Of a stretch of 64,000 nt of DNA, positions 1 to 7,080 are shown piece by piece. Positions within the stretch are counted from its first letter, which is position 1. Each line of letters begins with the position of its first letter. A program made the position numbers and the translations under genes. The notes under the pieces are model-generated. The model worked only from the letters and a program-made list of their open reading frames with translations. It was not told the DNA's origin and made no database searches. This stretch comes from Escherichia phage vB_EcoM_JB75: the sequence record MH355584.1. One strand, 5' to 3'.

Positions 1-10
1 AAGGAAAATT

Positions 11-949
11 ATGTACAATATTAAATGCCTGACCAAAAACGAACAAGCTGAAATTGTTAAGCTGTATTCAAGTGGTAATTACACCCAACAGGAATTGGCT
101 GATTGGCAAGGTGTATCGGTTGACACAATCCGTCGTGTTTTGAAAAATGCTGAAGAAGCTAAACGCTCTAAAGTTACTATTAGCGGTGATATTACAGTTA
201 AAGTTAATAGCGATGCAGTTATTGCTCCAGTTGCTAAATCTGACATTATTTGGAATGCATCTAAAAAATTCATTTCAATTACTGTTGACGGTGTAACTTA
301 TAACGCAACTCCTAATACTCATTCAAACTTCCAGGAAATTCTTAATCTGCTTGTAGCGGATAAGTTGGAAGAAGCGGCACAAAAAATTAATGTTCGTCGC
401 GCTGTTGAAAAATATATTTCAGGCGATGTTCGAATTGAAGGTGGAAGCTTGTTCTATCAAAATATTGAATTGCGATCTGGTTTGGTTGATCGTATTCTTG
501 ACTCGATGGAAAAAGGCGAAAACTTTGAATTCTATTTTCCGTTCTTGGAAAATCTGTTGGAAAACCCAAGCCAAAAAGCGGTATCTCGACTCTTTGATTT
601 CTTGGTAGCAAACGATATTGAAATTACAGAAGACGGTTACTTCTATGCTTGGAAAGTAGTTCGCAGTAATTACTTTGACTGTCATTCAAATACTTTTGAT
701 AACAGCCCTGGTAAAGTAGTTAAAATGCCACGTACTCGTGTGAATGACGATGATACACAAACTTGTTCTCGCGGTCTGCATGTGTGTTCTAAATCTTATA
801 TTCGTCACTTTGGCAGTTCAACTAGCCGAGTTGTAAAAGTTAAAGTACATCCGCGTGATGTAGTATCAATTCCGATTGATTACAACGATGCTAAAATGCG
901 TACCTGCCAATACGAAGTAGTTGAAGACGTTACTGAACAATTTAAATAA
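11..949 (+). CDS. rIIB: rIIB membrane-associated protein (312 aa)
   Basis: Translation begins MYNIKCLTKNEQAEIVKLY, matching the T4 rIIB N-terminus as I recall it; length 312 aa equals T4 rIIB; SD aaggaaaatt upstream; position at end of the rII region. Confidence 0.92.
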   Translation: MYNIKCLTKNEQAEIVKLYSSGNYTQQELADWQGVSVDTIRRVLKNAEEAKRSKVTISGDITVKVNSDAVIAPVAKSDIIWNASKKFISITVDGVTYNATPNTHSNFQEILNLLVADKLEEAAQKINVRRAVEKYISGDVRIEGGSLFYQNIELRSGLVDRILDSMEKGENFEFYFPFLENLLENPSQKAVSRLFDFLVANDIEITEDGYFYAWKVVRSNYFDCHSNTFDNSPGKVVKMPRTRVNDDDTQTCSRGLHVCSKSYIRHFGSSTSRVVKVKVHPRDVVSIPIDYNDAKMRTCQYEVVEDVTEQFK

Positions 950-977
950 GGGCTTCGGCCCTTAACTGAGGAAAATT

Positions 978-1172
978 ATGTTAGGTTATCAAGCACGAGT
1001 AAAAGAAGAATACGATCAATTAATGCTCAAAATTAATGCACTGAGTAAATTTTTAGAAAGCGCAAAGTTTCTAACAGTTAGTGTAGTTGAGCAAGAACTG
1101 CTACTTTCACAGTTCATCTCAATGAAATCTTATGCTGAATGTCTAGAGAAAAGAATTGCACAATTCAAGTAA
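978..1172 (+). CDS. hypothetical early protein (64 aa), rIIB-denB nonessential region
   Basis: ORF with SD gaggaaaatt 6 nt upstream of ATG; flanked by GGGCTTCGGCCC hairpins on both sides. Confidence 0.55.
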   Translation: MLGYQARVKEEYDQLMLKINALSKFLESAKFLTVSVVEQELLLSQFISMKSYAECLEKRIAQFK

Positions 1173-1176
1173 AATA

Positions 1177-1199
1177 AAGGGCTTCGGCCCTTTTGTTTT
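1177..1199 (+). terminator. rho-independent terminator
   Basis: GGGCTTCGGCCC hairpin (UUCG tetraloop) followed by TTTTGTTTT. Confidence 0.7.
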
Positions 1200-1210
1200 A
1201 AGGAAAAATT

Positions 1211-1540
1211 ATGATTTATTGTATGAATATCGGTGATTCCGACATAAAAGAGATTAAACTGCACGGAAATCATCACGCTAATATTGTGTACTGTAATAAA
1301 TTTGAGTTTGGTCACGAAAAACTTGGGTTTCTTTACTGTAATGATGTTATAGTCATGGATAAAAAGGAGCTCGATGAACTTGACCGCGAGTCTTTAGATG
1401 AAAATGACCGAATTTATTACGGCACTCTTAAAGTATATAACGCTTATCTCAGTGGTAAAAAGGAAAGTCTAAATGCAGAAAACGAATCCGGGTTTACAGA
1501 GACTATTTCAGATTCCGACATTTACCCTATCGAACAGTGA
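1211..1540 (+). CDS. hypothetical protein (109 aa)
   Basis: ORF with SD aaggaaaaatt before ATG; follows a rho-independent terminator. Confidence 0.55.
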   Translation: MIYCMNIGDSDIKEIKLHGNHHANIVYCNKFEFGHEKLGFLYCNDVIVMDKKELDELDRESLDENDRIYYGTLKVYNAYLSGKKESLNAENESGFTETISDSDIYPIEQ

Positions 1541-2030
1541 CTTGACTAGTGAAATGAAGGTCAAAATTGCTGATACTGCAAGATACTCTTTAAAACAAAA
1601 CCCGAACCAGGATAAAGCAGAAGTTATTGAAAGATGTCGTATTGCTGTATACGCAGAGTTTTTTGTAGCAGATTGGCTAAGCGGGTATGTTAATAAAGGT
1701 CAAGAAGATGTCGATGATCCATATACATACGCGTGGGATGTTTTAGCACATCCAAAATACTGTGGGCTTCGTGTAGAAGTTAAGACACATCAAACTGGCT
1801 CACGTTGGATTTCTGTAACAACAGGATGCAGCGGAGAGTATCCATACGGTTCTGGAATAAATCTAGGGCCCATTCTAAATCATCAAGTCGCTGACTGTAT
1901 AATTATATTCAACACTAAAGAAATTCATCCAGGTGTCATCCAGTACACTCCGAAGTTCATCGGTGACAGAGAAGACCTTCGTAAGGTTGTAAGAAAAAGC
2001 AACTACAATGGATGGTATCTTTCCATTTAA
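1473..2030 (+). CDS. denB: putative endonuclease IV (denB-like), start uncertain
   Basis: Position between rIIB and ndd as in T4; the 185 aa ORF length equals T4 denB, but this start overlaps the upstream ORF by 68 nt; an alternative ATG at 1554 would give 158 aa. Sequence itself not recognised from memory. Confidence 0.55.
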   Translation: MQKTNPGLQRLFQIPTFTLSNSDLTSEMKVKIADTARYSLKQNPNQDKAEVIERCRIAVYAEFFVADWLSGYVNKGQEDVDDPYTYAWDVLAHPKYCGLRVEVKTHQTGSRWISVTTGCSGEYPYGSGINLGPILNHQVADCIIIFNTKEIHPGVIQYTPKFIGDREDLRKVVRKSNYNGWYLSI

Positions 2031-2047
2031 AAAATTTTCACAAAACA

Positions 2048-2080
2048 GTTTACATACCACAAGGACAGTGGTACTATACA
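2048..2080 (+). promoter_or_regulatory. early promoter (GTTTAC -35, TACTATAC extended -10)
   Basis: AAAATTTTCACAAAACAGTTTAC ... GTGGTACTATACA matches the T4 early promoter consensus, including the A-rich UP region. Confidence 0.7.
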
Positions 2081-2104
2081 ACTATCAGCTACGGAGGAGT
2101 AAAA

Positions 2105-2368
2105 ATGAAATTTAAATTTTATTACACTAAACATAAAATTACCGGTGAATTTATTGCATTTACGACTTCAACTACAGATGAAGAAGATATTTTTACTGCA
2201 GTATTTTTATCAAAATGGGAATCAGATCAACCTTACTTATCATCACGTGAAGATCTCCAACGATTAGTTAATGGAGAATATAATGATTCATGGTCATATT
2301 TAGTCCATGATTGTGTTAAAAAGGCAATAAAACAAAAACACTTGGAAATCGTTGAGATTGAACTATGA
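2105..2368 (+). CDS. hypothetical early protein (87 aa)
   Basis: ATG preceded by SD ggaggagt and an early promoter (GTTTAC ... TACTATAC); the longer 118 aa ORF in the track would start inside denB. Confidence 0.55.
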   Translation: MKFKFYYTKHKITGEFIAFTTSTTDEEDIFTAVFLSKWESDQPYLSSREDLQRLVNGEYNDSWSYLVHDCVKKAIKQKHLEIVEIEL

Positions 2369-2447
2369 GTTCATTATGTTGGTGTTTTGTTTGGTTAATT
2401 AGTATTCCAGTAATTTGTTTAACATTTACTTTTGTGATGAGGTTATT

Positions 2448-2546
2448 ATGAAAATTTTGAATTCTGTACTTATTGCGTGTGCATGGTGGGTTGCACAAGT
2501 TTCGGCAGTAGTGATTGGTATTCACATTTATTACGAATATTTTTAA
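2448..2546 (+). CDS. small hydrophobic peptide (32 aa)
   Basis: MKILNSVLIACAWWVAQVSAVVIGIHIYYEYF; SD gaggttatt; single predicted TM helix; below the ORF-track size cutoff. Confidence 0.4.
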   Translation: MKILNSVLIACAWWVAQVSAVVIGIHIYYEYF

Positions 2547-2612
2547 AAAAAGTTGTTTACAAGACTGTTCTTCCGTGGTACTATTACCCTATCAACTACG
2601 GAGGAACAGAAA

Positions 2613-2726
2613 ATGAAAAAGATTGTTAAAGCTATATGGAATGTAGTTATAATACTAATAGTTTTGAGTATATTCCCAATCGTTTTAATGATTGATGTAT
2701 TAAACGTTTACTTTGGATTTATGTGA
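2613..2726 (+). CDS. small hydrophobic peptide (37 aa)
   Basis: MKKIVKAIWNVVIILIVLSIFPIVLMIDVLNVYFGFM; SD ggaggaaca; preceded by an early promoter. Confidence 0.45.
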   Translation: MKKIVKAIWNVVIILIVLSIFPIVLMIDVLNVYFGFM

Positions 2727-2733
2727 GGAAAAT

Positions 2734-2931
2734 ATGAAGCGTAAAAGCACTGCGTTTACATTTATTGAATGGTTTTTCGATAATATTTTTCCGGCTTTAT
2801 TCATTTTCATGCTGATTTTTGCCTTAGGTTCAGTTGTAGTTGGAATTTATTTGATGACGGTAGTCGGAATGGATATTCATCAAAATGGTTTAAAATCCGT
2901 GGTTGAAACAATTTGGAATGGTGTAAAATGA
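2734..2931 (+). CDS. small membrane protein (65 aa)
   Basis: ATG with SD gaggaaaat; hydrophobic core FPALFIFMLIFALGSVVVGIYLMTVV. Confidence 0.5.
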   Translation: MKRKSTAFTFIEWFFDNIFPALFIFMLIFALGSVVVGIYLMTVVGMDIHQNGLKSVVETIWNGVK

Positions 2932-3038
2932 TGAATTTGCTGAGTGGTTGGTTTTATATTCTTATGTTTTACATTGGTGCAAATTTCCCATATTGGATGG
3001 GATGGTCAACAACTGCATTTGGATTTTATACTCCCTGA
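2928..3038 (+). CDS. small hydrophobic peptide (36 aa)
   Basis: MMNLLSGWFYILMFYIGANFPYWMGWSTTAFGFYTP; ATGA overlap with the upstream ORF. Confidence 0.4.
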   Translation: MMNLLSGWFYILMFYIGANFPYWMGWSTTAFGFYTP

Positions 3039-3046
3039 GGTGAATT

Positions 3047-3262
3047 ATGAAAATTTTTAAAGATGTAAAAGTTGGCGAAATTTTTTGCTTGGATAGTGGT
3101 GATCAGTTAATTCGTATTTCACCTCTTAAGAGCACCAGCGAGAAAATGACAGTTAACGCTACTTTAGCAAATAACAGTAATGAACGTTTCTGTATTGAAA
3201 ATGATACTGAAACTTATACCGTAGAAGAGTTTTGGGAATTGAGCGTCGACTGCGACGATTAA
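3047..3262 (+). CDS. hypothetical protein (71 aa)
   Basis: ORF with SD gaggtgaatt before ATG. Confidence 0.5.
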   Translation: MKIFKDVKVGEIFCLDSGDQLIRISPLKSTSEKMTVNATLANNSNERFCIENDTETYTVEEFWELSVDCDD

Positions 3263-3322
3263 TTTAATGGCCGCGTGTATTCATGCGGCCTTGGAGTAGA
3301 AAATAATTTAGAGGAAATTAAT

Positions 3323-3781
3323 ATGAAATACATGACTGTTACTGATCTGAATAATGCAGGCGCTACTGTTATTGGCACAATCAAGGGCGGTGAATGGTTT
3401 TTGGGAACTCCGCATAAAGACATTTTATCTAAACCTGGATTTTACTTTTTAGTAAGTAAATTAGATGGTCGTCCATTTAGTAATCCATGTGTGTCTGCAC
3501 GATTTTATGTAGGTAATCAGCGTTCTAAGCAAGGATTCAGTGCGGTTCTAAGTCATATTCGTCAGCGTCGGTCTCAGCTTGCGCGTACTATTGCAAATAA
3601 CAATGTTCCATACACAGTATTTTATCTTCCTGCTTCTAAGATGAAACCTCTGACGACAGGATTTGATAAAGGTCAGTTAGCGTTGGCGTTTACTCGTAAT
3701 CATCATTCTGAGTATCAAACACTTGAAGAAATGAACCGTATGTTGGCTGATAACTTTAAATTTGTTTTGCAGGCATATTAA
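3323..3781 (+). CDS. ndd: nucleoid disruption protein Ndd (151 aa)
   Basis: Starts [13 protein letters not shown] with SD gaggaaatta; 151 aa as in T4 Ndd; immediately upstream of stp as in T4. Confidence 0.8.
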
Positions 3782-3861
3782 TGAGTAATTTCCATAACGA
3801 ACATGTGATGCAGTTCTATCGTAACAATCTTAAAACTAAAGGCGTCTTCGGACGCCAGTGA
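3781..3861 (+). CDS. stp: Stp peptide (26 aa), activator of the host PrrC anticodon nuclease
   Basis: [26 protein letters not shown], recognised as T4 Stp; TAATG overlap with the ndd stop. Confidence 0.85.
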
Positions 3862-3868
3862 GGAAAAT

Positions 3869-4024
3869 ATGAATATCGCAAAATTATTAGGAGTTATTTC
3901 ATTTATTTGTTGGATAGTAGCATGTGTTTTAACTATCTGTATCGATGCCAGCAGTGTGTTTTCGCAGGCTTTAGCCCAAGGTATGTGTGCATATTTAACA
4001 TTTGTGTTGTTATCTAATGATTAA
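3869..4024 (+). CDS. ac: acriflavine-resistance membrane peptide Ac (51 aa)
   Basis: 51 aa hydrophobic ORF directly after stp with SD gaggaaaat; matches T4 ac in length and position. Confidence 0.7.
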   Translation: MNIAKLLGVISFICWIVACVLTICIDASSVFSQALAQGMCAYLTFVLLSND

Positions 4025-4157
4025 GAAAATCTTGGGCTATTCATTAGCCCTTGCTATTTTATTGATAGCGTTATATTACGGAATAATGTTCGGATTAATT
4101 CAAGTCGTGCTTTTCATTTCTGATGTTATTATGGCACTACATTCACTAGTATGGTAA
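4017..4157 (+). CDS. small membrane peptide (46 aa), 52.1-like
   Basis: MIKKILGYSLALAILLIALYYGIMFGLIQVVLFISDVIMALHSLVW; overlaps the ac stop; lies just upstream of gene 52. Confidence 0.45.
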   Translation: MIKKILGYSLALAILLIALYYGIMFGLIQVVLFISDVIMALHSLVW

Positions 4158-4161
4158 ATTT

Positions 4162-5490
4162 ATGCAACTGAATAATCGCGATTTAAAAAGTATCATTGAT
4201 AATGAAGCATTGGCTTATGCTATGTACACGGTTGAAAATCGTGCTATCCCAAATATGATTGATGGATTTAAGCCAGTTCAACGATTTGTTATTGCTCGAG
4301 CTCTTGATTTGGCACGAGGAAATAAAGATAAGTTTCACAAACTCGCTTCTATTGCAGGTGGTGTAGCGGACCTTGGATATCACCATGGCGAAAACTCTGC
4401 ACAAGACGCAGGCGCTTTGATGGCTAATACTTGGAATAATAATTTTCCTTTGTTAGATGGTCAAGGAAACTTCGGTTCTCGTACTGTCCAAAAGGCAGCA
4501 GCAAGTCGTTATATTTTTGCTCGTGTAAGTAAAAATTTCTATAACGTATATAAAGATACTGAATATGCTCCGGTACATCAAGATAAAGAACACATTCCGC
4601 CTGCTTTCTATTTGCCTATTATTCCTACTGTTCTTCTTAATGGCGTTTCCGGTATTGCAACTGGTTATGCAACTTACATTCTTCCTCATAGTGTTTCTTC
4701 TGTTAAGAAAGCTGTACTGCAAGCTCTTCAAGGAAAGAAAGTAACTAAACCGAAGGTAGAATTCCCAGAATTTCGTGGTGAAGTCGTTGAGATTGACGGT
4801 CAATATGAAATTCGTGGAACATATAAGTTTACTTCACGAACTCAAATGCATATCACTGAGATTCCGTATAAGTATGATCGTGAAACTTATGTGAGTAAAA
4901 TCTTAGACCCGCTTGAAGATAAAGGCTTCATTACATGGGATGATGCTTGTGGTGAGCATGGCTTTGGCTTCAAAGTTAAATTCCGAAAAGAATACTCTTT
5001 GAGCGATAATGAAGAAGAACGCCATGCAAAAATTATGAAAGACTTCGGGTTGATTGAGCGTCGTTCCCAGAATATTACCGTCATTAATGAGAAAGGAAAG
5101 CTGCAAGTTTACGATAATGTAGTTGATTTAATCAAAGACTTCGTTGAAGTTCGTAAAACTTATGTCCAAAAACGAATTGATAACAAAATCAAAGAAACTG
5201 AATCAGCATTTCGTTTAGCTTTTGCCAAGGCACATTTCATTAAGAAAGTAATTTCAGGTGAAATTGTTGTACAAGGTAAAACTCGCAAAGAACTGACCGA
5301 AGAACTTTCTAAAATTGATATGTATTCTTCTTATGTTGATAAACTAGTTGGAATGAACATTTTTCATATGACTTCCGACGAAGCAAAGAAACTTGCTGAA
5401 GAAGCTAAAGCCAAAAAAGAAGAAAACGAATATTGGAAAACTACTGATGTAGTTACAGAATACACCAAAGATTTAGAGGAAATCAAATGA
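4162..5490 (+). CDS. 52: DNA topoisomerase II medium subunit gp52 (442 aa)
   Basis: 442 aa as in T4 gp52; N-terminal region AYAMYTVENRAIPNMIDGFKPVQRFVI resembles the GyrA/ParC N-terminal motif; adjacent to motA. Confidence 0.85.
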   Translation: MQLNNRDLKSIIDNEALAYAMYTVENRAIPNMIDGFKPVQRFVIARALDLARGNKDKFHKLASIAGGVADLGYHHGENSAQDAGALMANTWNNNFPLLDGQGNFGSRTVQKAAASRYIFARVSKNFYNVYKDTEYAPVHQDKEHIPPAFYLPIIPTVLLNGVSGIATGYATYILPHSVSSVKKAVLQALQGKKVTKPKVEFPEFRGEVVEIDGQYEIRGTYKFTSRTQMHITEIPYKYDRETYVSKILDPLEDKGFITWDDACGEHGFGFKVKFRKEYSLSDNEEERHAKIMKDFGLIERRSQNITVINEKGKLQVYDNVVDLIKDFVEVRKTYVQKRIDNKIKETESAFRLAFAKAHFIKKVISGEIVVQGKTRKELTEELSKIDMYSSYVDKLVGMNIFHMTSDEAKKLAEEAKAKKEENEYWKTTDVVTEYTKDLEEIK

Positions 5491-5636
5491 GTCCATTCAT
5501 TGGTATCACAAGCGCTGCATTAGTATCTGGTGGCATTTTACTGGCGGGTTTAGGTGTTGTTCCTGCCGTAGCAGGAGGTCTTCTTGCGTTCGGAATTCAA
5601 CGTGTTATCATGACAGTTATCACAGTCATGCAGTAA
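5487..5636 (+). CDS. small membrane peptide (49 aa)
   Basis: MSPFIGITSAALVSGGILLAGLGVVPAVAGGLLAFGIQRVIMTVITVMQ; ATGA overlap with the gene 52 stop; followed by a strong terminator. Confidence 0.45.
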   Translation: MSPFIGITSAALVSGGILLAGLGVVPAVAGGLLAFGIQRVIMTVITVMQ

Positions 5637-5640
5637 TTTT

Positions 5641-5670
5641 AGGGAGAGCCTCGGCTCTCCCTTTTTTATT
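5641..5670 (+). terminator. rho-independent terminator after gene 52 and the small ORF
   Basis: AGGGAGAGCCTCGGCTCTCCCT hairpin followed by TTTTTTATT. Confidence 0.8.
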
Positions 5671-5692
5671 TCAAAAATTTTTTCACAAAACG

Positions 5693-5726
5693 GTTTACAA
5701 CCAAAGCATACTGTGGTACTATACAA
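5693..5726 (+). promoter_or_regulatory. early promoter
   Basis: GTTTACAACCAAAGCATACTGTGGTACTATACA; almost identical to the promoter at 22504. Confidence 0.7.
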
Positions 5727-5771
5727 CTATCAAATAAATGAACTGAAACAAACAACCCGGAGATACAAAAA

Positions 5772-5999
5772 ATGAAATTTAAAATCGAAAACGAAATCGT
5801 TAAAGCTAAAAATGCTCTGACTGCTAACAAACTGGTTGTAGATGGTATTGAATATGATATCTGTGGAGTTCGTGAAGAAAAACCTGGTGTTCTGACTTTC
5901 TTCACAATGATTTTTAAATTTAAAGGTGACACAGAATTCAAACAGTTTGATTTTGCCCATGAAGACGAAATCGAAGTTCGTAATCTGAACATTAAGTAA
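5772..5999 (+). CDS. hypothetical early protein (75 aa)
   Basis: ORF preceded by a consensus early promoter and SD-like ccggaga. Confidence 0.6.
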   Translation: MKFKIENEIVKAKNALTANKLVVDGIEYDICGVREEKPGVLTFFTMIFKFKGDTEFKQFDFAHEDEIEVRNLNIK

Positions 6000-6038
6000 G
6001 TACTTTATTAGAGCTCTTGAAAAAGAGTGCAAAAAAGT

Positions 6039-6070
6039 GTTTACTTCTGCTTTAAACATGATACTATAGA
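6039..6070 (+). promoter_or_regulatory. early promoter upstream of motA
   Basis: GTTTAC at 6039 and TACTATAG at 6062. Confidence 0.65.
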
Positions 6071-6104
6071 CCTATCAAATAAATGAACTGAAACGGAGAT
6101 TAAA

Positions 6105-6740
6105 ATGTCTAAAGTAACTTACATCATCAAAGCTTCTAACGATATTCTGAATGAAAAAACTGCTGCGATTTTAATTACCATTGCTAAGAAAGATTTCATT
6201 ACAGCTGCAGAAGTTCGTGAGGTGCATCCAGATTTAGGTAACGCAGTAGTTAATAGTAATATTGGGGTATTGATTAAAAAAGGCCTGGTGGAGAAATCTG
6301 GTGATGGATTAATCATTACTGGTGAAGCTCAGGATATTATTTCAAATGCGGCAACTTTATATGCACAGGAAAATGCTCCTGAACTACTGAAAAAACGAGC
6401 AACTCGTAAAGCTCGTGAGATTACTTCCGATATGGAAGAAGATAAAGACCTTATGCTAAAACTTTTAGATGAAAATGGATTTGTTCTTAAAAAGGTTGAA
6501 ACTTACCGCAGTAACTATCTTGCTATTTTAGAAAAACGCACTCACGGAATTCGTAATTTTGAAATTAATAACAATGGAAATATGCGAATTTTTGGATACA
6601 AAATGATGGAACACCATATTCAGAAATTTACTGATATTGGAATGTCATGTAAAATCGCTAAAAACGGCAATGTGTATCTTGACATTAAACGCTCGGCAGA
6701 AAACATTGAAGCAGTAATCACCGTAGCATCTGAACTGTGA
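6105..6740 (+). CDS. motA: middle-transcription activator MotA (211 aa)
   Basis: 211 aa as in T4 MotA; N-terminus MSKVTYIIKASND matches recalled MotA; early promoter upstream. Confidence 0.88.
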   Translation: MSKVTYIIKASNDILNEKTAAILITIAKKDFITAAEVREVHPDLGNAVVNSNIGVLIKKGLVEKSGDGLIITGEAQDIISNAATLYAQENAPELLKKRATRKAREITSDMEEDKDLMLKLLDENGFVLKKVETYRSNYLAILEKRTHGIRNFEINNNGNMRIFGYKMMEHHIQKFTDIGMSCKIAKNGNVYLDIKRSAENIEAVITVASEL

Positions 6741-6750
6741 GGAATAAATA

Positions 6751-7080
6751 ATGAACAAGTTAGAAATTGTTAATGAACTTCGTCGTTGTGCAGAACCCAC
6801 TCAAGAGGGGTGGGATATCTGGTATCATGGAGCTTATCTTGGAACTATCGTAAAGATTAAGACTGGTAAATACATGATTATTCGTGAAAGTAAAGATGCT
6901 CCAGTAGGTATTCGCAATAATTTTATGGCGGCGATAAGTTCATTTACGGATGCAGCTTACGAAATTTACCTTGCTGATTATAAAGAATTCCAGGAATCTC
7001 AACCAGTTATTCGTTCAATTGGTGTTAACAAAGCTCAACAGAAAACTTTATGGCAACGTATTAAAGGATGGTTTAAATGA
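6751..7080 (+). CDS. hypothetical protein (109 aa)
   Basis: ORF with SD gaggaataaataatg; in the motA-asiA cluster. Confidence 0.55.
   Translation: MNKLEIVNELRRCAEPTQEGWDIWYHGAYLGTIVKIKTGKYMIIRESKDAPVGIRNNFMAAISSFTDAAYEIYLADYKEFQESQPVIRSIGVNKAQQKTLWQRIKGWFK

Follow-up and report, generated by a model that had tools for sequence, protein, structure and literature searches.

The stretch of DNA analysed here (the window, 64,000 nt in length) belongs to a T4-like phage (Tequatrovirus) and is 99.9% identical to vB_EcoM_Shinka. The gene order from denB to ndd is that of T4, and between these two genes lies a series of small ORFs on the same strand as both. An earlier note on this DNA, made from its sequence, had drawn attention to a run of four of them at 2448–3038 coding for 32–65 aa, and all four are present, at 2448–2546, 2613–2726, 2734–2931 and 2928/2931–3038. 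The run has a fifth member, however, a 28-aa ORF at 2365–2451 that had been overlooked. Two further ORFs placed by the same note at 4017–4157 and 5487–5636 are also found there, and correspond to T4 52.1 and motA.1.

The small genes of the denB–ndd interval

The genes and signals in and around the interval are as follows.

2048–2077, + strand: T4-type early promoter P1, GTTTACA-N-TGGTACTAT, upstream of the 87-aa ORF, ndd.6 and ndd.5
2105–2368, + strand: 87-aa soluble ORF (phrog_2390), with a stop that overlaps the ndd.6 start (ATGA)
2365–2451, + strand: ndd.6 homologue, a 28-aa hydrophobic peptide (phrog_8851, E = 7e-17)
2448–2546, + strand: ndd.5 homologue, 32 aa with one hydrophobic segment (phrog_5011, E = 4e-26)
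2555–2584, + strand: T4-type early promoter P2, GTTTACA-N-TGGTACTAT, in the ndd.5–ndd.4 spacer
2613–2726, + strand: ndd.4 homologue, 37 aa (phrog_3098, E = 3e-21), with the Shine-Dalgarno sequence (SD) GGAGGA
2734–2931, + strand: 65-aa DUF7248 protein (PF23906), T4 'ndd.3' and 'ndd.2a' as one gene
2931–3038, + strand (alternative start at 2928): ndd.2 homologue, 35 aa, or 36 aa from 2928 (phrog_4135, E = 2e-24)
3047–3262, + strand: ndd.1 homologue (phrog_2183), an acidic, soluble protein of 71 aa whose gene closes the P2 unit
3269–3290, + strand: 9-bp hairpin in the ndd.1–ndd spacer, GC-rich and with no U-tract
3869–4024, + strand: ac, 51 aa, a small membrane protein with an acriflavine-sensitivity phenotype (T4 annotation, PHROG match)
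4017–4157, + strand: 52.1, 46 aa, Pfam DUF7396 (PF24129, E = 5e-22, 78 bits against a cut-off of 27)
5487–5636, + strand: motA.1, 49 aa, Gly/Ala-rich and hydrophobic (phrog_3487, E = 7e-31; T4 annotation), with a start that overlaps the gene 52 stop

In the order of the window, the ORFs at 2448–3038 are T4 ndd.5, ndd.4, ndd.3 plus ndd.2a as a single 65-aa gene, and ndd.2, all of them long-annotated T4 genes that are clearly under selection. The ndd.2–ndd.6 peptides match PHROGs 4135, 2401, 3098, 5011 and 8851 from the first residue to the last, with E values of 7e-17 to 3e-29. None of these ORFs is new. The genes ndd.2–ndd.6, 52.1 and motA.1 were annotated in T4 decades ago, and all belong to PHROG families, some also to Pfam families; searches of the small peptides against NCBIfam, PDB sequences and Rfam returned no match. 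The ndd.4 product begins with MKKIVK and has one strong transmembrane (TM) segment and a conserved motif, IFP-V-MID, and its homologues (59–97% identity) carry the precomputed label PF26889 Phage_T4_Y16N, a newer Pfam entry. The 65-aa protein scores 68.2 bits against PF23906 (gathering cut-off 27), and spans profile positions 8–57 of 58. Its N-terminus is basic, it has a single long TM helix, and its C-terminal tail (NGLKSVVETIWNGVK) is amphipathic and conserved. The ndd.2 product is rich in aromatic residues (34%), has no charged residue, and contains the motif NFPYWMGWS. DUF7248 (PF23906), DUF7396 (PF24129) and Phage_T4_Y16N (PF26889) are all families of unknown function, and membership in them carries no mechanism.

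The cassette has 94–97% DNA identity to ndd.6–ndd.2 of T4 (NC_000866, T4p270–T4p275), which lie at the same position, and several differences are seen between the two. Where the T4 reference has ndd.3 (26 aa) and ndd.2a (40 aa), the window has a single 65-aa ORF. The split in T4 is a database error, the omission of one base, such that 'ndd.3' is an artefact and 'ndd.2a' is the tail of the 65-aa protein. The ndd.4 ORF is 37 aa in the window as against 42 aa annotated in T4, and in the T4 call the start has most probably been placed too early. For ndd.2 the true start is one codon after the annotated one; the ATG at 2931 is conserved, whereas the ATG at 2928 reads ATA in 10 of 24 aligned sequences. 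The window also has an extra gene upstream of ndd.6, the 87-aa ORF, most of which has been deleted in T4 although ndd.6 is retained there. The suggestion that such ORFs are easily missed agrees well with existing annotation, in that Shinka, the closest relative, annotates only the 65-aa ORF among them, and ndd.6 is annotated in three of the 19 annotated records inspected.

Conservation of the reading frames

Hydrophobicity alone is poor evidence for genes of this kind, because 15 of 48 (31%) small off-frame ORFs embedded in large genes of this window also pass the hydrophobicity cut. Conservation was examined in an alignment of 24 Tequatrovirus sequences that includes the T4 reference record and an IMG/VR contig. 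The ndd.5, ndd.4 and ndd.2 frames are intact in all 24, and those of the 65-aa ORF and ndd.6 in 23 each; the alignment contains only two frame-breaking indels, of which the T4 reference record and the IMG/VR contig have one each, and a single phage (EP01) has lost the ndd.2 ATG. Synonymous and nonsynonymous substitutions were counted for each frame, in tests that ignore phylogeny and recombination, and only in the called frames do synonymous changes predominate, with nonsynonymous to synonymous ratios of about 0.08–0.25. The synonymous and nonsynonymous counts are 30 and 9 for the 65-aa ORF (p = 1e-13), 10 and 3 for ndd.5 (p = 4e-5), 12 and 10 for ndd.2 (p = 2.5e-4), 7 and 5 for ndd.6 (p = 0.002), and 27 and 11 for ndd.1; for ndd.4 (6 and 6, p = 0.02) the signal is weak because there are few variable sites. 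No alternative frame of any of the five ORFs gives p < 0.01, the nearest being frame +1 of ndd.2 (p = 0.046) and frame +1 of ndd.4 (p = 0.06). These patterns indicate that the five ORFs are protein-coding genes under purifying selection, and we consider it very probable that all five are real, translated genes. Failure of related phages to conserve these frames, which the earlier note named as grounds for dismissing them, is clearly not what is found.

Within Tequatrovirus the cassette is close to universal. It is covered over at least 80% of its length in 491 records, compared with 496 records that have a 95–99% identical gene 52, and its identity (94–99%) is on a par with that of this essential gene (95–99%). 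Matches to ndd.5 were found in 493 records, all of them Tequatrovirus-like.

The wider comparison draws on GenBank phage records, because a search of IMG/VR with Ndd as bait gave five loci only; the four peptides of fewer than 40 aa were traced by tblastn within this phage collection. Beyond Tequatrovirus single peptides have been acquired, dropped or moved to another place in the order, in every case within the space bounded by denB and ndd, and homologues of ndd.4, ndd.6, ndd.2 and the DUF7248 protein occupy this position, on the same strand, in four other T4-like genera and an unclassified Logan contig. Homologues of ndd.4 with about 60% identity are found there in Mosugukvirus, Gaprivervirus and the unclassified Logan contig, and one with about 35% identity in Marfavirus. 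Those of ndd.6 (about 50% identity) occur in approximately 104 non-Tequatrovirus records, and a Klebsiella Marfavirus has an ndd.2 homologue, 46% identical, between ndd.4 and ndd. In Mosigvirus JS09 and Gaprivervirus UPEC01, too, an ndd.6-like peptide comes directly after the 87/88-aa ORF, and 52.1 is conserved in Gaprivervirus, Mosigvirus and Marfavirus. Different subsets are kept, with ndd.4 only in PM2, ndd.4 and ndd.2 in Marfavirus, and ndd.6 together with an unrelated 36-aa peptide in Mosigvirus, and in one Logan contig (L030) the order of the peptides is permuted. The tail of the 65-aa protein is invariant across genera. An exhaustive HMMER search with this protein found nothing credible outside T4-like phages (six matches, three of them low-complexity in giant proteins), and the eight clusters recovered by a word-index search are all T4-like or unattributed Logan contigs.

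Paralogy among the peptides, or with Ac or 52.1, was considered and rejected, the best of the 28 pairs among eight small peptides, Ac included, reaching z = 2.3 and none exceeding it. With their differing subsets and orders and their lack of mutual similarity, the peptides behave, as far as sequence comparison indicates, as independent modules across the T4-like genera.

Expression and membrane character

The pattern GTTTAC-N13-16-TGNTAYWAT occurs nine times in the window, on the + strand in every case, whereas 0.01 matches would be expected. Both hexamers of P2 are conserved in 24 of 24 aligned phages, and P1, which belongs to a repeated promoter and 5'UTR family, is conserved too. The assignment of an SD to each of the four ORFs holds for three of them, with GAGG for ndd.5, GGAGGA for ndd.4 and GAGGA for the 65-aa ORF, all 5–8 nt 5' of the ATG, but ndd.2 has only a weak GGTG together with a stop/start overlap. 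Coupling runs along both units, with ATGA overlaps at 2365 and at 2448, where the ndd.5 start overlaps the ndd.6 stop, TGATG at 2929–2933, and stops that fall within the next SD at 2724 and 3036. At the far end, the hairpin at 3269–3290 lies in an 86-nt stretch (3240–3325) with a folding energy of -25.9 kcal/mol (z = -3.3), and is likely to be the 3' boundary or a stabiliser of the early transcript.

In T4 the transcripts of ndd.2–ndd.6 are of the early class by RNA-seq (PMC9697503 Table S2). Shotgun proteomics of T4 detected the ndd.1 protein, classed as 'early', but not ndd.2–ndd.6, 52.1, ac, stp or motA.1 (PMC9697503 Table S2). Non-detection of the peptides is to be expected because they are tiny and hydrophobic, although it still amounts to zero evidence for the products. 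The main texts of a CRISPRi-ART T4 screen preprint and of the T4 minihomology paper make no mention of these genes.

A single TM segment had been claimed for each of the four ORFs. For ndd.4 and the 65-aa protein the prediction is strong and for ndd.5 it is acceptable, but for ndd.2, with a best 19-residue Kyte-Doolittle mean of 1.17, it is doubtful. Insertion scores are favourable for ndd.4 (-3.8), the 65-aa protein (-3.1) and ndd.6 (-1.0), borderline for ndd.5 (+0.8) and unfavourable for ndd.2 (+2.2). AlphaFold2 models the 65-aa protein as two helices only, at residues 6–17 and 19–64, with a mean pLDDT of 79, and the hydrophobic moment of its tail is 2.15 as against 0.77 in shuffled sequences. 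Because ndd.4 and the 65-aa protein have basic N-termini, an N-in orientation is predicted for both, such that the tail of the 65-aa protein would face the periplasm. Overall, four of the five peptides are probably inserted in the membrane.

Possible roles of the peptides at the host membrane

Several small E. coli proteins, including AcrZ, MgtS and MgrB, are about 30–50 aa long with a single TM helix and a short basic flank, and bind a larger membrane protein. The insertion score of AcrZ (-2.9) is comparable to those of ndd.4 and the 65-aa protein, but there is no homology between these proteins and the phage peptides, which are phage-encoded and early. Comparison with Pfam and NCBIfam and pairwise alignment gave no similarity of the peptides to Ac, AcrZ or any characterised micro-protein. 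Ac, the 51-aa product of the 'acridine resistance' locus, resembles the peptides in being early, small, hydrophobic and encoded close by, and the same sa deletions remove it, although it is predicted to have two short helices and lacks detectable similarity to any of the five. It alone in this neighbourhood has a phenotype of its own. The earlier note suggested that such small peptides modulate host transporters, envelope stress or exclusion, and took this to be known of Ac, which it called an acriflavine-resistance peptide. Wild-type Ac confers sensitivity rather than resistance, and when expressed alone it sensitises E. coli to acriflavine and ampicillin (10.1101/2025.06.30.662393); its insertion in the membrane and block of AcrAB-TolC are a proposal made in that 2025 preprint.

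A second phenotype comes from T4 sa-delta-9, in which 52.1 through denB is deleted. This phage is viable with a yield of about 50%, and has lost the stimulation of phosphatidylglycerol synthesis, as have denB-deficient backgrounds (PMC6071114). The phenotype links the denB–52.1 interval to membrane physiology without being mapped to these ORFs.

Exchange of genes at this position has been described for the promoter-early stem-loop (PeSL) cassettes of T4-like hyperplastic regions (Arbiol 2010, PMC2839356; Comeau 2014, PMC4122927), one example being the replacement of T4 ndd.4/.5 by ORF268/269 in phage PST (PMC4122927). The promoters flanking the small ORFs, members of a repeated promoter/5'UTR family, fit the consensus TTTACW-N17-TAYWAT of the PST/T4 PeSL promoter (PMC4122927), but no clear GC stem-loop is found directly upstream of P1 or P2. 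There is only an AT-rich palindrome at 2533–2556, and the GC hairpin at 3269–3290 comes after ndd.1 and precedes neither promoter. PeSLs account for the movement of the genes, not for the action of the peptides.

Among the other roles to be weighed, the peptides could serve in counter-defence or exclusion, neutralising or being sensed by membrane-bound abortive-infection systems, or excluding superinfecting phage as Imm does, with effects in particular hosts only. We regard this as unlikely, and it is a specific sub-case of membrane-protein binding more than a fully separate explanation. The neighbouring genes rIIB (prophage-induced lysis), stp (which activates PrrC), denB, ndd, ac and arn all concern host interaction, laboratory strains can be infected productively without the interval (PMC6071114), which is a described site of PeSL-mediated cassette exchange (PMC4122927), and module content differs between genera with different hosts, as is typical of arms-race genes. 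Within Tequatrovirus, however, the cassette is near-invariant (about 491 of 496 records), unlike the fast turnover of an arms race, and no similarity to Imm, Sp or known anti-defence proteins was found in Pfam, PHROGs or NCBIfam. Type I toxins of the Hok, TisB and Ibs kind are small and hydrophobic, and the peptides resemble them in size, in hydrophobicity and in having no soluble domains. Early in infection they might disturb either the bilayer or the proton-motive force, with the rise in phosphatidylglycerol as a response; membrane stresses raise the PG:PE ratio, and sa-delta-9 abolishes the phospholipid stimulation (PMC6071114), and the sensitisation by Ac to two unrelated drugs could reflect general leakiness. 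Such an action seems quite improbable to us, as conservation is position-specific (Pro/Asp in ndd.4, NGLKSV..WNG in the DUF7248 protein, NFPYWxGWS in ndd.2), which argues for specific contacts, and the phage depends on membrane energisation throughout early and middle infection. Moreover, no match to a toxin or holin family was found in Pfam, PHROGs or NCBIfam, and the promoters are of the early class whereas holins are late.

A single hetero-oligomeric phage membrane complex, built from all five peptides and possibly also from the 87-aa protein and ndd.1, would fit the translational coupling along both units, a usual companion of stoichiometric co-production, and the start/stop coupling seen in three genera and one Logan contig between the 87-aa ORF and a small hydrophobic peptide. 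An obligate complex would be co-inherited, however, whereas genera retain different subsets, the order is permuted in L030, and T4 lacks most of the 87-aa gene yet retains ndd.6; we find such a complex very improbable. It is scarcely credible that the peptides are non-functional, either as chance hydrophobic frames in an AT-rich spacer or as frames translated only for ribosome coupling. Chance hydrophobic ORFs are common, as the embedded off-frame ORFs attest, the peptides are absent from proteomics, and many annotators skip them, but this explanation is largely refuted by the frame-specific synonymous excess in all five ORFs, the preservation of starts and stops with few exceptions, and amino-acid motifs that remain 35–60% identical between genera too distant for alignment of the DNA. 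Extension of the binding model to a denB–52 'micro-protein arsenal' of about eight unrelated peptides, each docking a different host inner-membrane machine, is distinctly unlikely. Its members could be ndd.6, ndd.5, ndd.4, the DUF7248 protein, ndd.2, Ac, 52.1 and motA.1, and one ndd.x product would be the phosphatidylglycerol factor lost in sa-delta-9, with PssA, PgsA or their regulators as conceivable targets.

Our preference, which is a slight one, is that the five ORFs are real early genes for membrane peptides, dispensable modules each of which may bind a membrane protein. Transcription would occur in the first minutes of infection from the two sigma-70-type T4 early promoters, with translation as tightly coupled cistrons whose stops overlap the next start or fall in the next SD. 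At least four of the products, of 28–65 aa, would insert as single helices in the host inner membrane, the 65-aa protein in an N-in orientation with its amphipathic tail exposed to the periplasm. As accessory modules the peptides would be dispensable, and would be gained, lost or reordered singly in the denB–ndd hyperplastic region. By analogy with the small E. coli proteins, each peptide may, independently of the others, bind a host (or phage) inner-membrane protein, a suggestion that we offer tentatively and at less than even odds.

All five frames are under selection and near-universal in the genus, and annotators should therefore call them. Only two phenotypes have been mapped to the interval, sensitivity to acridine and stimulated synthesis of phosphatidylglycerol; each concerns the membrane, and the second is without an assigned gene. 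Binding of the kind envisaged would tune envelope physiology as the phage takes over its host, as is established for AcrZ and proposed for Ac.

Small genes between denB and ndd

The approximately 1 kb around the cassette of tiny ORFs shares 99.9% identity with Escherichia phage vB_EcoM_Shinka and 93-99% with about 490 further Tequatrovirus genomes, T4, T2 and T6 among them. The window is antiparallel to the T4 reference, and gene order was assigned by comparison with NC_000866.

Genes of the rIIB-motA region
11-949, rIIB
978-1172, denB.1
1211-1540, DUF7418 gene (109 aa), extra relative to T4, between denB.1 and denB
ending at 2030, denB
2105-2368, 87-aa gene, extra relative to T4, soluble, phrog_2390
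2365-2451, ndd.6 (28 aa)
2448-2546, ndd.5
2613-2726, ndd.4
2734-2931, 65-aa ORF (DUF7248)
2928/2931-3038, ndd.2
3047-3262, ndd.1
3323-3781, ndd
3781-3861, stp
3869-4024, ac
4017-4157, 52.1
4162-5490, gene 52
5487-5636, motA.1
6105-6740, motA

The four hydrophobic ORFs that an earlier note described at 2448-3038 have the coordinates, lengths and character it gave them, and are T4 ndd.5, ndd.4, ndd.3 plus ndd.2a, and ndd.2; the two similar ORFs it mentioned are 52.1 and motA.1. All four of the run are present, but a fifth peptide, ndd.6, which overlaps the ndd.5 start, had been overlooked. The proposal that each ORF has its own SD and a single TM segment holds well for ndd.4 and the 65-aa ORF and acceptably for ndd.5, and is doubtful for ndd.2, which has only a weak GGTG, relies on overlap with the preceding stop, and has no charged residues, 34% aromatic residues and a poor insertion score.

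Properties of the five peptides (SD with distance upstream of ATG; TM call; synonymous/nonsynonymous substitutions; records matched)
ndd.6: 7/5, p=0.002; 597 records, about 100 outside Tequatrovirus
ndd.5: GAGG, 5 nt; acceptable; 10/3, p=4e-5; 493 records, none outside
ndd.4: GGAGGA, 8 nt; strong; 6/6, p=0.02; 596 records, about 100 outside
65-aa ORF: GAGGA, 5 nt; strong; 30/9, p=1e-13; 518 records, about 25 outside
ndd.2: weak GGTG; doubtful; 12/10, p=2.5e-4; 518 records, about 25 outside, all Klebsiella phages

Scoring predicts a membrane-inserting helix in at least three peptides (ndd.6, ndd.4 and the 65-aa protein), with ndd.5 borderline. Because the N-termini of ndd.4 (MKKIVK) and the 65-aa protein (MKRKS) are basic, the positive-inside rule predicts an N-in, C-out topology for both. 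An AlphaFold2 model of the 65-aa protein (mean pLDDT 79) has a short N-terminal helix (6-17), a kink at Pro20 and a long helix (19-64), and the C-terminal 15 residues show strong amphipathicity, with a hydrophobic moment of 2.15 versus 0.77 in shuffles (0/2000 reach 2.15). The ndd.x peptides have no significant similarity to one another or to Ac, 52.1 or motA.1.

The DUF7418 gene overlaps at its 3' end the longest possible denB frame (ATG 1473); relatives with this gene have denB annotated as a shorter 158 aa, for which the equivalent start here is 1554. Just the last few dozen bases of the 87-aa gene are seen to remain in T4, upstream of ndd.6. Its stop overlaps the ndd.6 start in the window, Mosigvirus and Gaprivervirus, while its 82-aa counterpart in Logan contig L030 is coupled instead to an ndd.2-like peptide, and the gene and its coupled small peptide may form a two-gene module. 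A Pfam scan did not reproduce the 'DUF5376' label that Shinka carries for this gene.

Conservation of the frames and the T4 annotation

Hydrophobicity is no evidence of a genuine gene, since the genome is T-rich and 15 of 48 small ATG ORFs lying out of frame inside large genes pass the same cut. The case against chance is evolutionary conservation, as judged from sequence comparison, and the frames are conserved in relatives, a point on which the earlier note had made its reading depend. When 23 relatives (including T4, T6, RB59, AR1, Yersinia and Shigella phages, and IMG/VR contigs) are aligned with the window, only two indels fall within ORFs: the T4 reference lacks 1 nt, and one IMG/VR contig has 2 extra nt at the extreme end of ndd.6. 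The remaining length variation is a poly-A run past the ndd.5 stop and 6 nt inserted in frame directly ahead of ndd.4. Distinct substitutions in the aligned set give a crude nonsynonymous:synonymous ratio of 0.08-0.25, and no ORF has an alternative frame with p<0.01; ndd.2 +1 (p=0.046) and ndd.4 +1 (p=0.06) come closest. At least 80% of the cassette is covered in 491 records, compared with 496 records containing gene 52 at 95-99% identity, and it is therefore near-universal in Tequatrovirus, with divergence not above that of an essential gene.

The T4 record reads ATGAACGTAAAC where all other phages, and re-sequenced T4 strains (KJ477685, HM137666, OZ209023, OZ209057, T4_ev151), read ATGAAGCGTAAAC. 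The missing base is a single G in the second codon of the 65-aa gene (window 2734-2745; NC_000866 166548-166628, or 5049-5129 of T4 locus L001), and the shorter version occurs in only 3 of 424 records: X75802.1, the original fragment entry, and AF158101.6 and NC_000866.4, the reference built from it. It follows that the 26-aa 'ndd.3' is an artefact read out of frame and that the 40-aa 'ndd.2a', annotated as a 'periplasmic protein', is the C-terminal portion of the 65-aa protein; both calls have been carried into other annotations, such as RB59 and RB68. The 42-aa T4 ndd.4 starts at an ATG arising from a C-to-T change specific to T4 and RB59, upstream of and overlapping the SD (window 2594-2615), and the start kept in 24/24 sequences yields 37 aa. 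As the first ndd.2 ATG (2928) reads ATA in 10 of 24 aligned sequences, the conserved start is the second, at 2931; in phage EP01 both codons read ATA. Many T4-like genomes label ndd.1, ndd.2 and even ndd as 'naphthalene 1,2-dioxygenase' (among records matching 2928-3781, for example, MZ502379, NC_027983, NC_054907 and OP870145), and T6 ndd.2 is labelled 'chaperone for long tail fiber formation'. Such labels appear to be names spread from the symbol 'ndd' or mis-transferred, not homology.

Early promoters, coupling and RNA elements

The early promoter pattern GTTTAC-N13-16-TGNTAYWAT has nine matches in the window, against 0.01 expected, and two copies bracket the cassette.

Early promoter sites (GTTTAC..TGnTAYWAT)
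2029-2105, +, promoter 2048-2077, ahead of the 87-aa gene, ndd.6 and ndd.5
2555-2612, +, promoter 2555-2584, ahead of ndd.4, the 65-aa gene, ndd.2 and ndd.1
5674-5750, +
6039-6094, +
8657, +
22504, +
23214, +
34619, +
38703, +

The 2555-2584 copy is kept in 24/24 sequences and is the published consensus for PST/T4 promoter-early stem-loop (PeSL) cassettes, for which ndd.4/.5 exchange serves as an example of shuffling (PMC4122927). Four of the nine lie within a repeated promoter and 5'UTR element, about 60-80 nt long (..GTGGTACTATACAACTATCA..CTACGGAGGA..), consistent with published PeSL mobile regulatory cassettes. Cistrons are tightly coupled through ATGA overlaps (2365, 2448) and TGATG (2929-2933), and the ndd.4 and ndd.2 stops lie inside the SD of the following gene (GTGAGGA and CTGAGGTGA). 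The five ORFs are real, selected genes, driven by early promoters and translationally coupled.

A 16-nt junction, GTGAGGAAAATATGAA, with a stop codon within the SD and then ATG, is identical at 2723-2738 (ndd.4/65-aa gene) and 3858-3873 (stp/ac). Between ndd.1 and ndd is a stable 9-bp GC hairpin (3269-3290, GGCCGCGUG-UAUU-CAUGCGGCC) without a U-tract, in an 86-nt stretch (3240-3325) with a folding z of -3.3; it may mark the end of a transcript, serve as a processing site or act as a stabiliser. An Rfam search over 1-7000 gave no family matches.

Distribution and possible roles

The genus border is the limit of DNA similarity, and peptide similarity extends past it. Homologues lie between denB and ndd in all cases examined, with varying peptide sets.

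Arrangements outside Tequatrovirus
Mosugukvirus PM2: ndd.4 only
Marfavirus P545: ndd.4, ndd.2
Mosigvirus JS09: 87-aa gene, ndd.6, unrelated 36-aa hydrophobic peptide, ndd.1
Gaprivervirus UPEC01: 88-aa gene, ndd.6, ndd.4, 68-aa DUF7248 protein, ndd.1
Logan contig L030: ndd.4, 82-aa gene, ndd.2-like peptide, 76-aa DUF7248 protein

Conserved residues of ndd.4 are K6, I8, N10, V17, L18, I20, P22, V24, I27 and D28; ndd.2 retains N(F/V)PYW(M/L)GWS; and in DUF7248 the TM segment has diverged while the C-terminal I..NGLKSV..WNG.K is invariant. Natural in-frame fusion joins the ndd.4 N-terminus to the DUF7248 tail in Shigella phage Sf25 (P0007), and the 151.8-kb T4 deletion derivative MZ375356 (P0008) joins the ndd.5 N-terminus to it; each fusion retains a TM segment and the conserved NGLKSVVETIWNGVK tail (window 2448-2931 equivalent). 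An annotated 52-aa ORF in UPEC01 (locus L025, 4101-4259) has a hydrophobic 25-aa leader followed by Stp-like sequence, and is either Stp with an N-terminal extension or too long a gene call.

The position-specific motifs, absence of an enzymatic domain, modular gain and loss, and analogy to Ac and AcrZ tentatively suggest that each peptide is an independent accessory module binding a larger inner-membrane protein. Plasmid-expressed Ac makes E. coli more sensitive to acriflavine and ampicillin, and the authors' proposal that it acts by blocking AcrAB-TolC (bioRxiv 10.1101/2025.06.30.662393) reappears as an assumption in PMC13250531. A role in counter-defence or exclusion, which overlaps with the binding of a membrane protein, is rather unlikely, and non-specific perturbation of the membrane more doubtful still. 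The T4 deletion sa-delta-9, spanning 52.1, ac, stp, ndd, ndd.1-ndd.6 and denB, is viable with about half the yield and abolishes post-infection stimulation of phosphatidylglycerol synthesis; a denB-deficient background likewise lacks the stimulation, and the causal gene is unmapped (PMC6071114).

With peptide sets varying among genera, a single hetero-oligomeric complex seems improbable. That the ORFs are non-functional we consider very improbable given their conservation. In T4, time-resolved RNA-seq classes the ndd.2, ndd.2a, ndd.3, ndd.4, ndd.5 and ndd.6 transcripts as early, along with those of 52.1, ac, stp and motA.1, and the proteins of ndd.2-ndd.6 (ndd.2a included), 52.1, ac, stp and motA.1 were not detected by the accompanying proteomics, in which Ndd and Ndd.1 appeared early (PMC9697503 Table S2). 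T4 annotation, PHROGs, Pfam and the PeSL papers already covered these ORFs, the membrane nature predicted for them and the plasticity of the interval, and the earlier observation is correct yet ordinary. If they are separate accessory modules, the ndd.x peptides may each bind a larger inner-membrane protein, by analogy with Ac and bacterial micro-proteins such as AcrZ.
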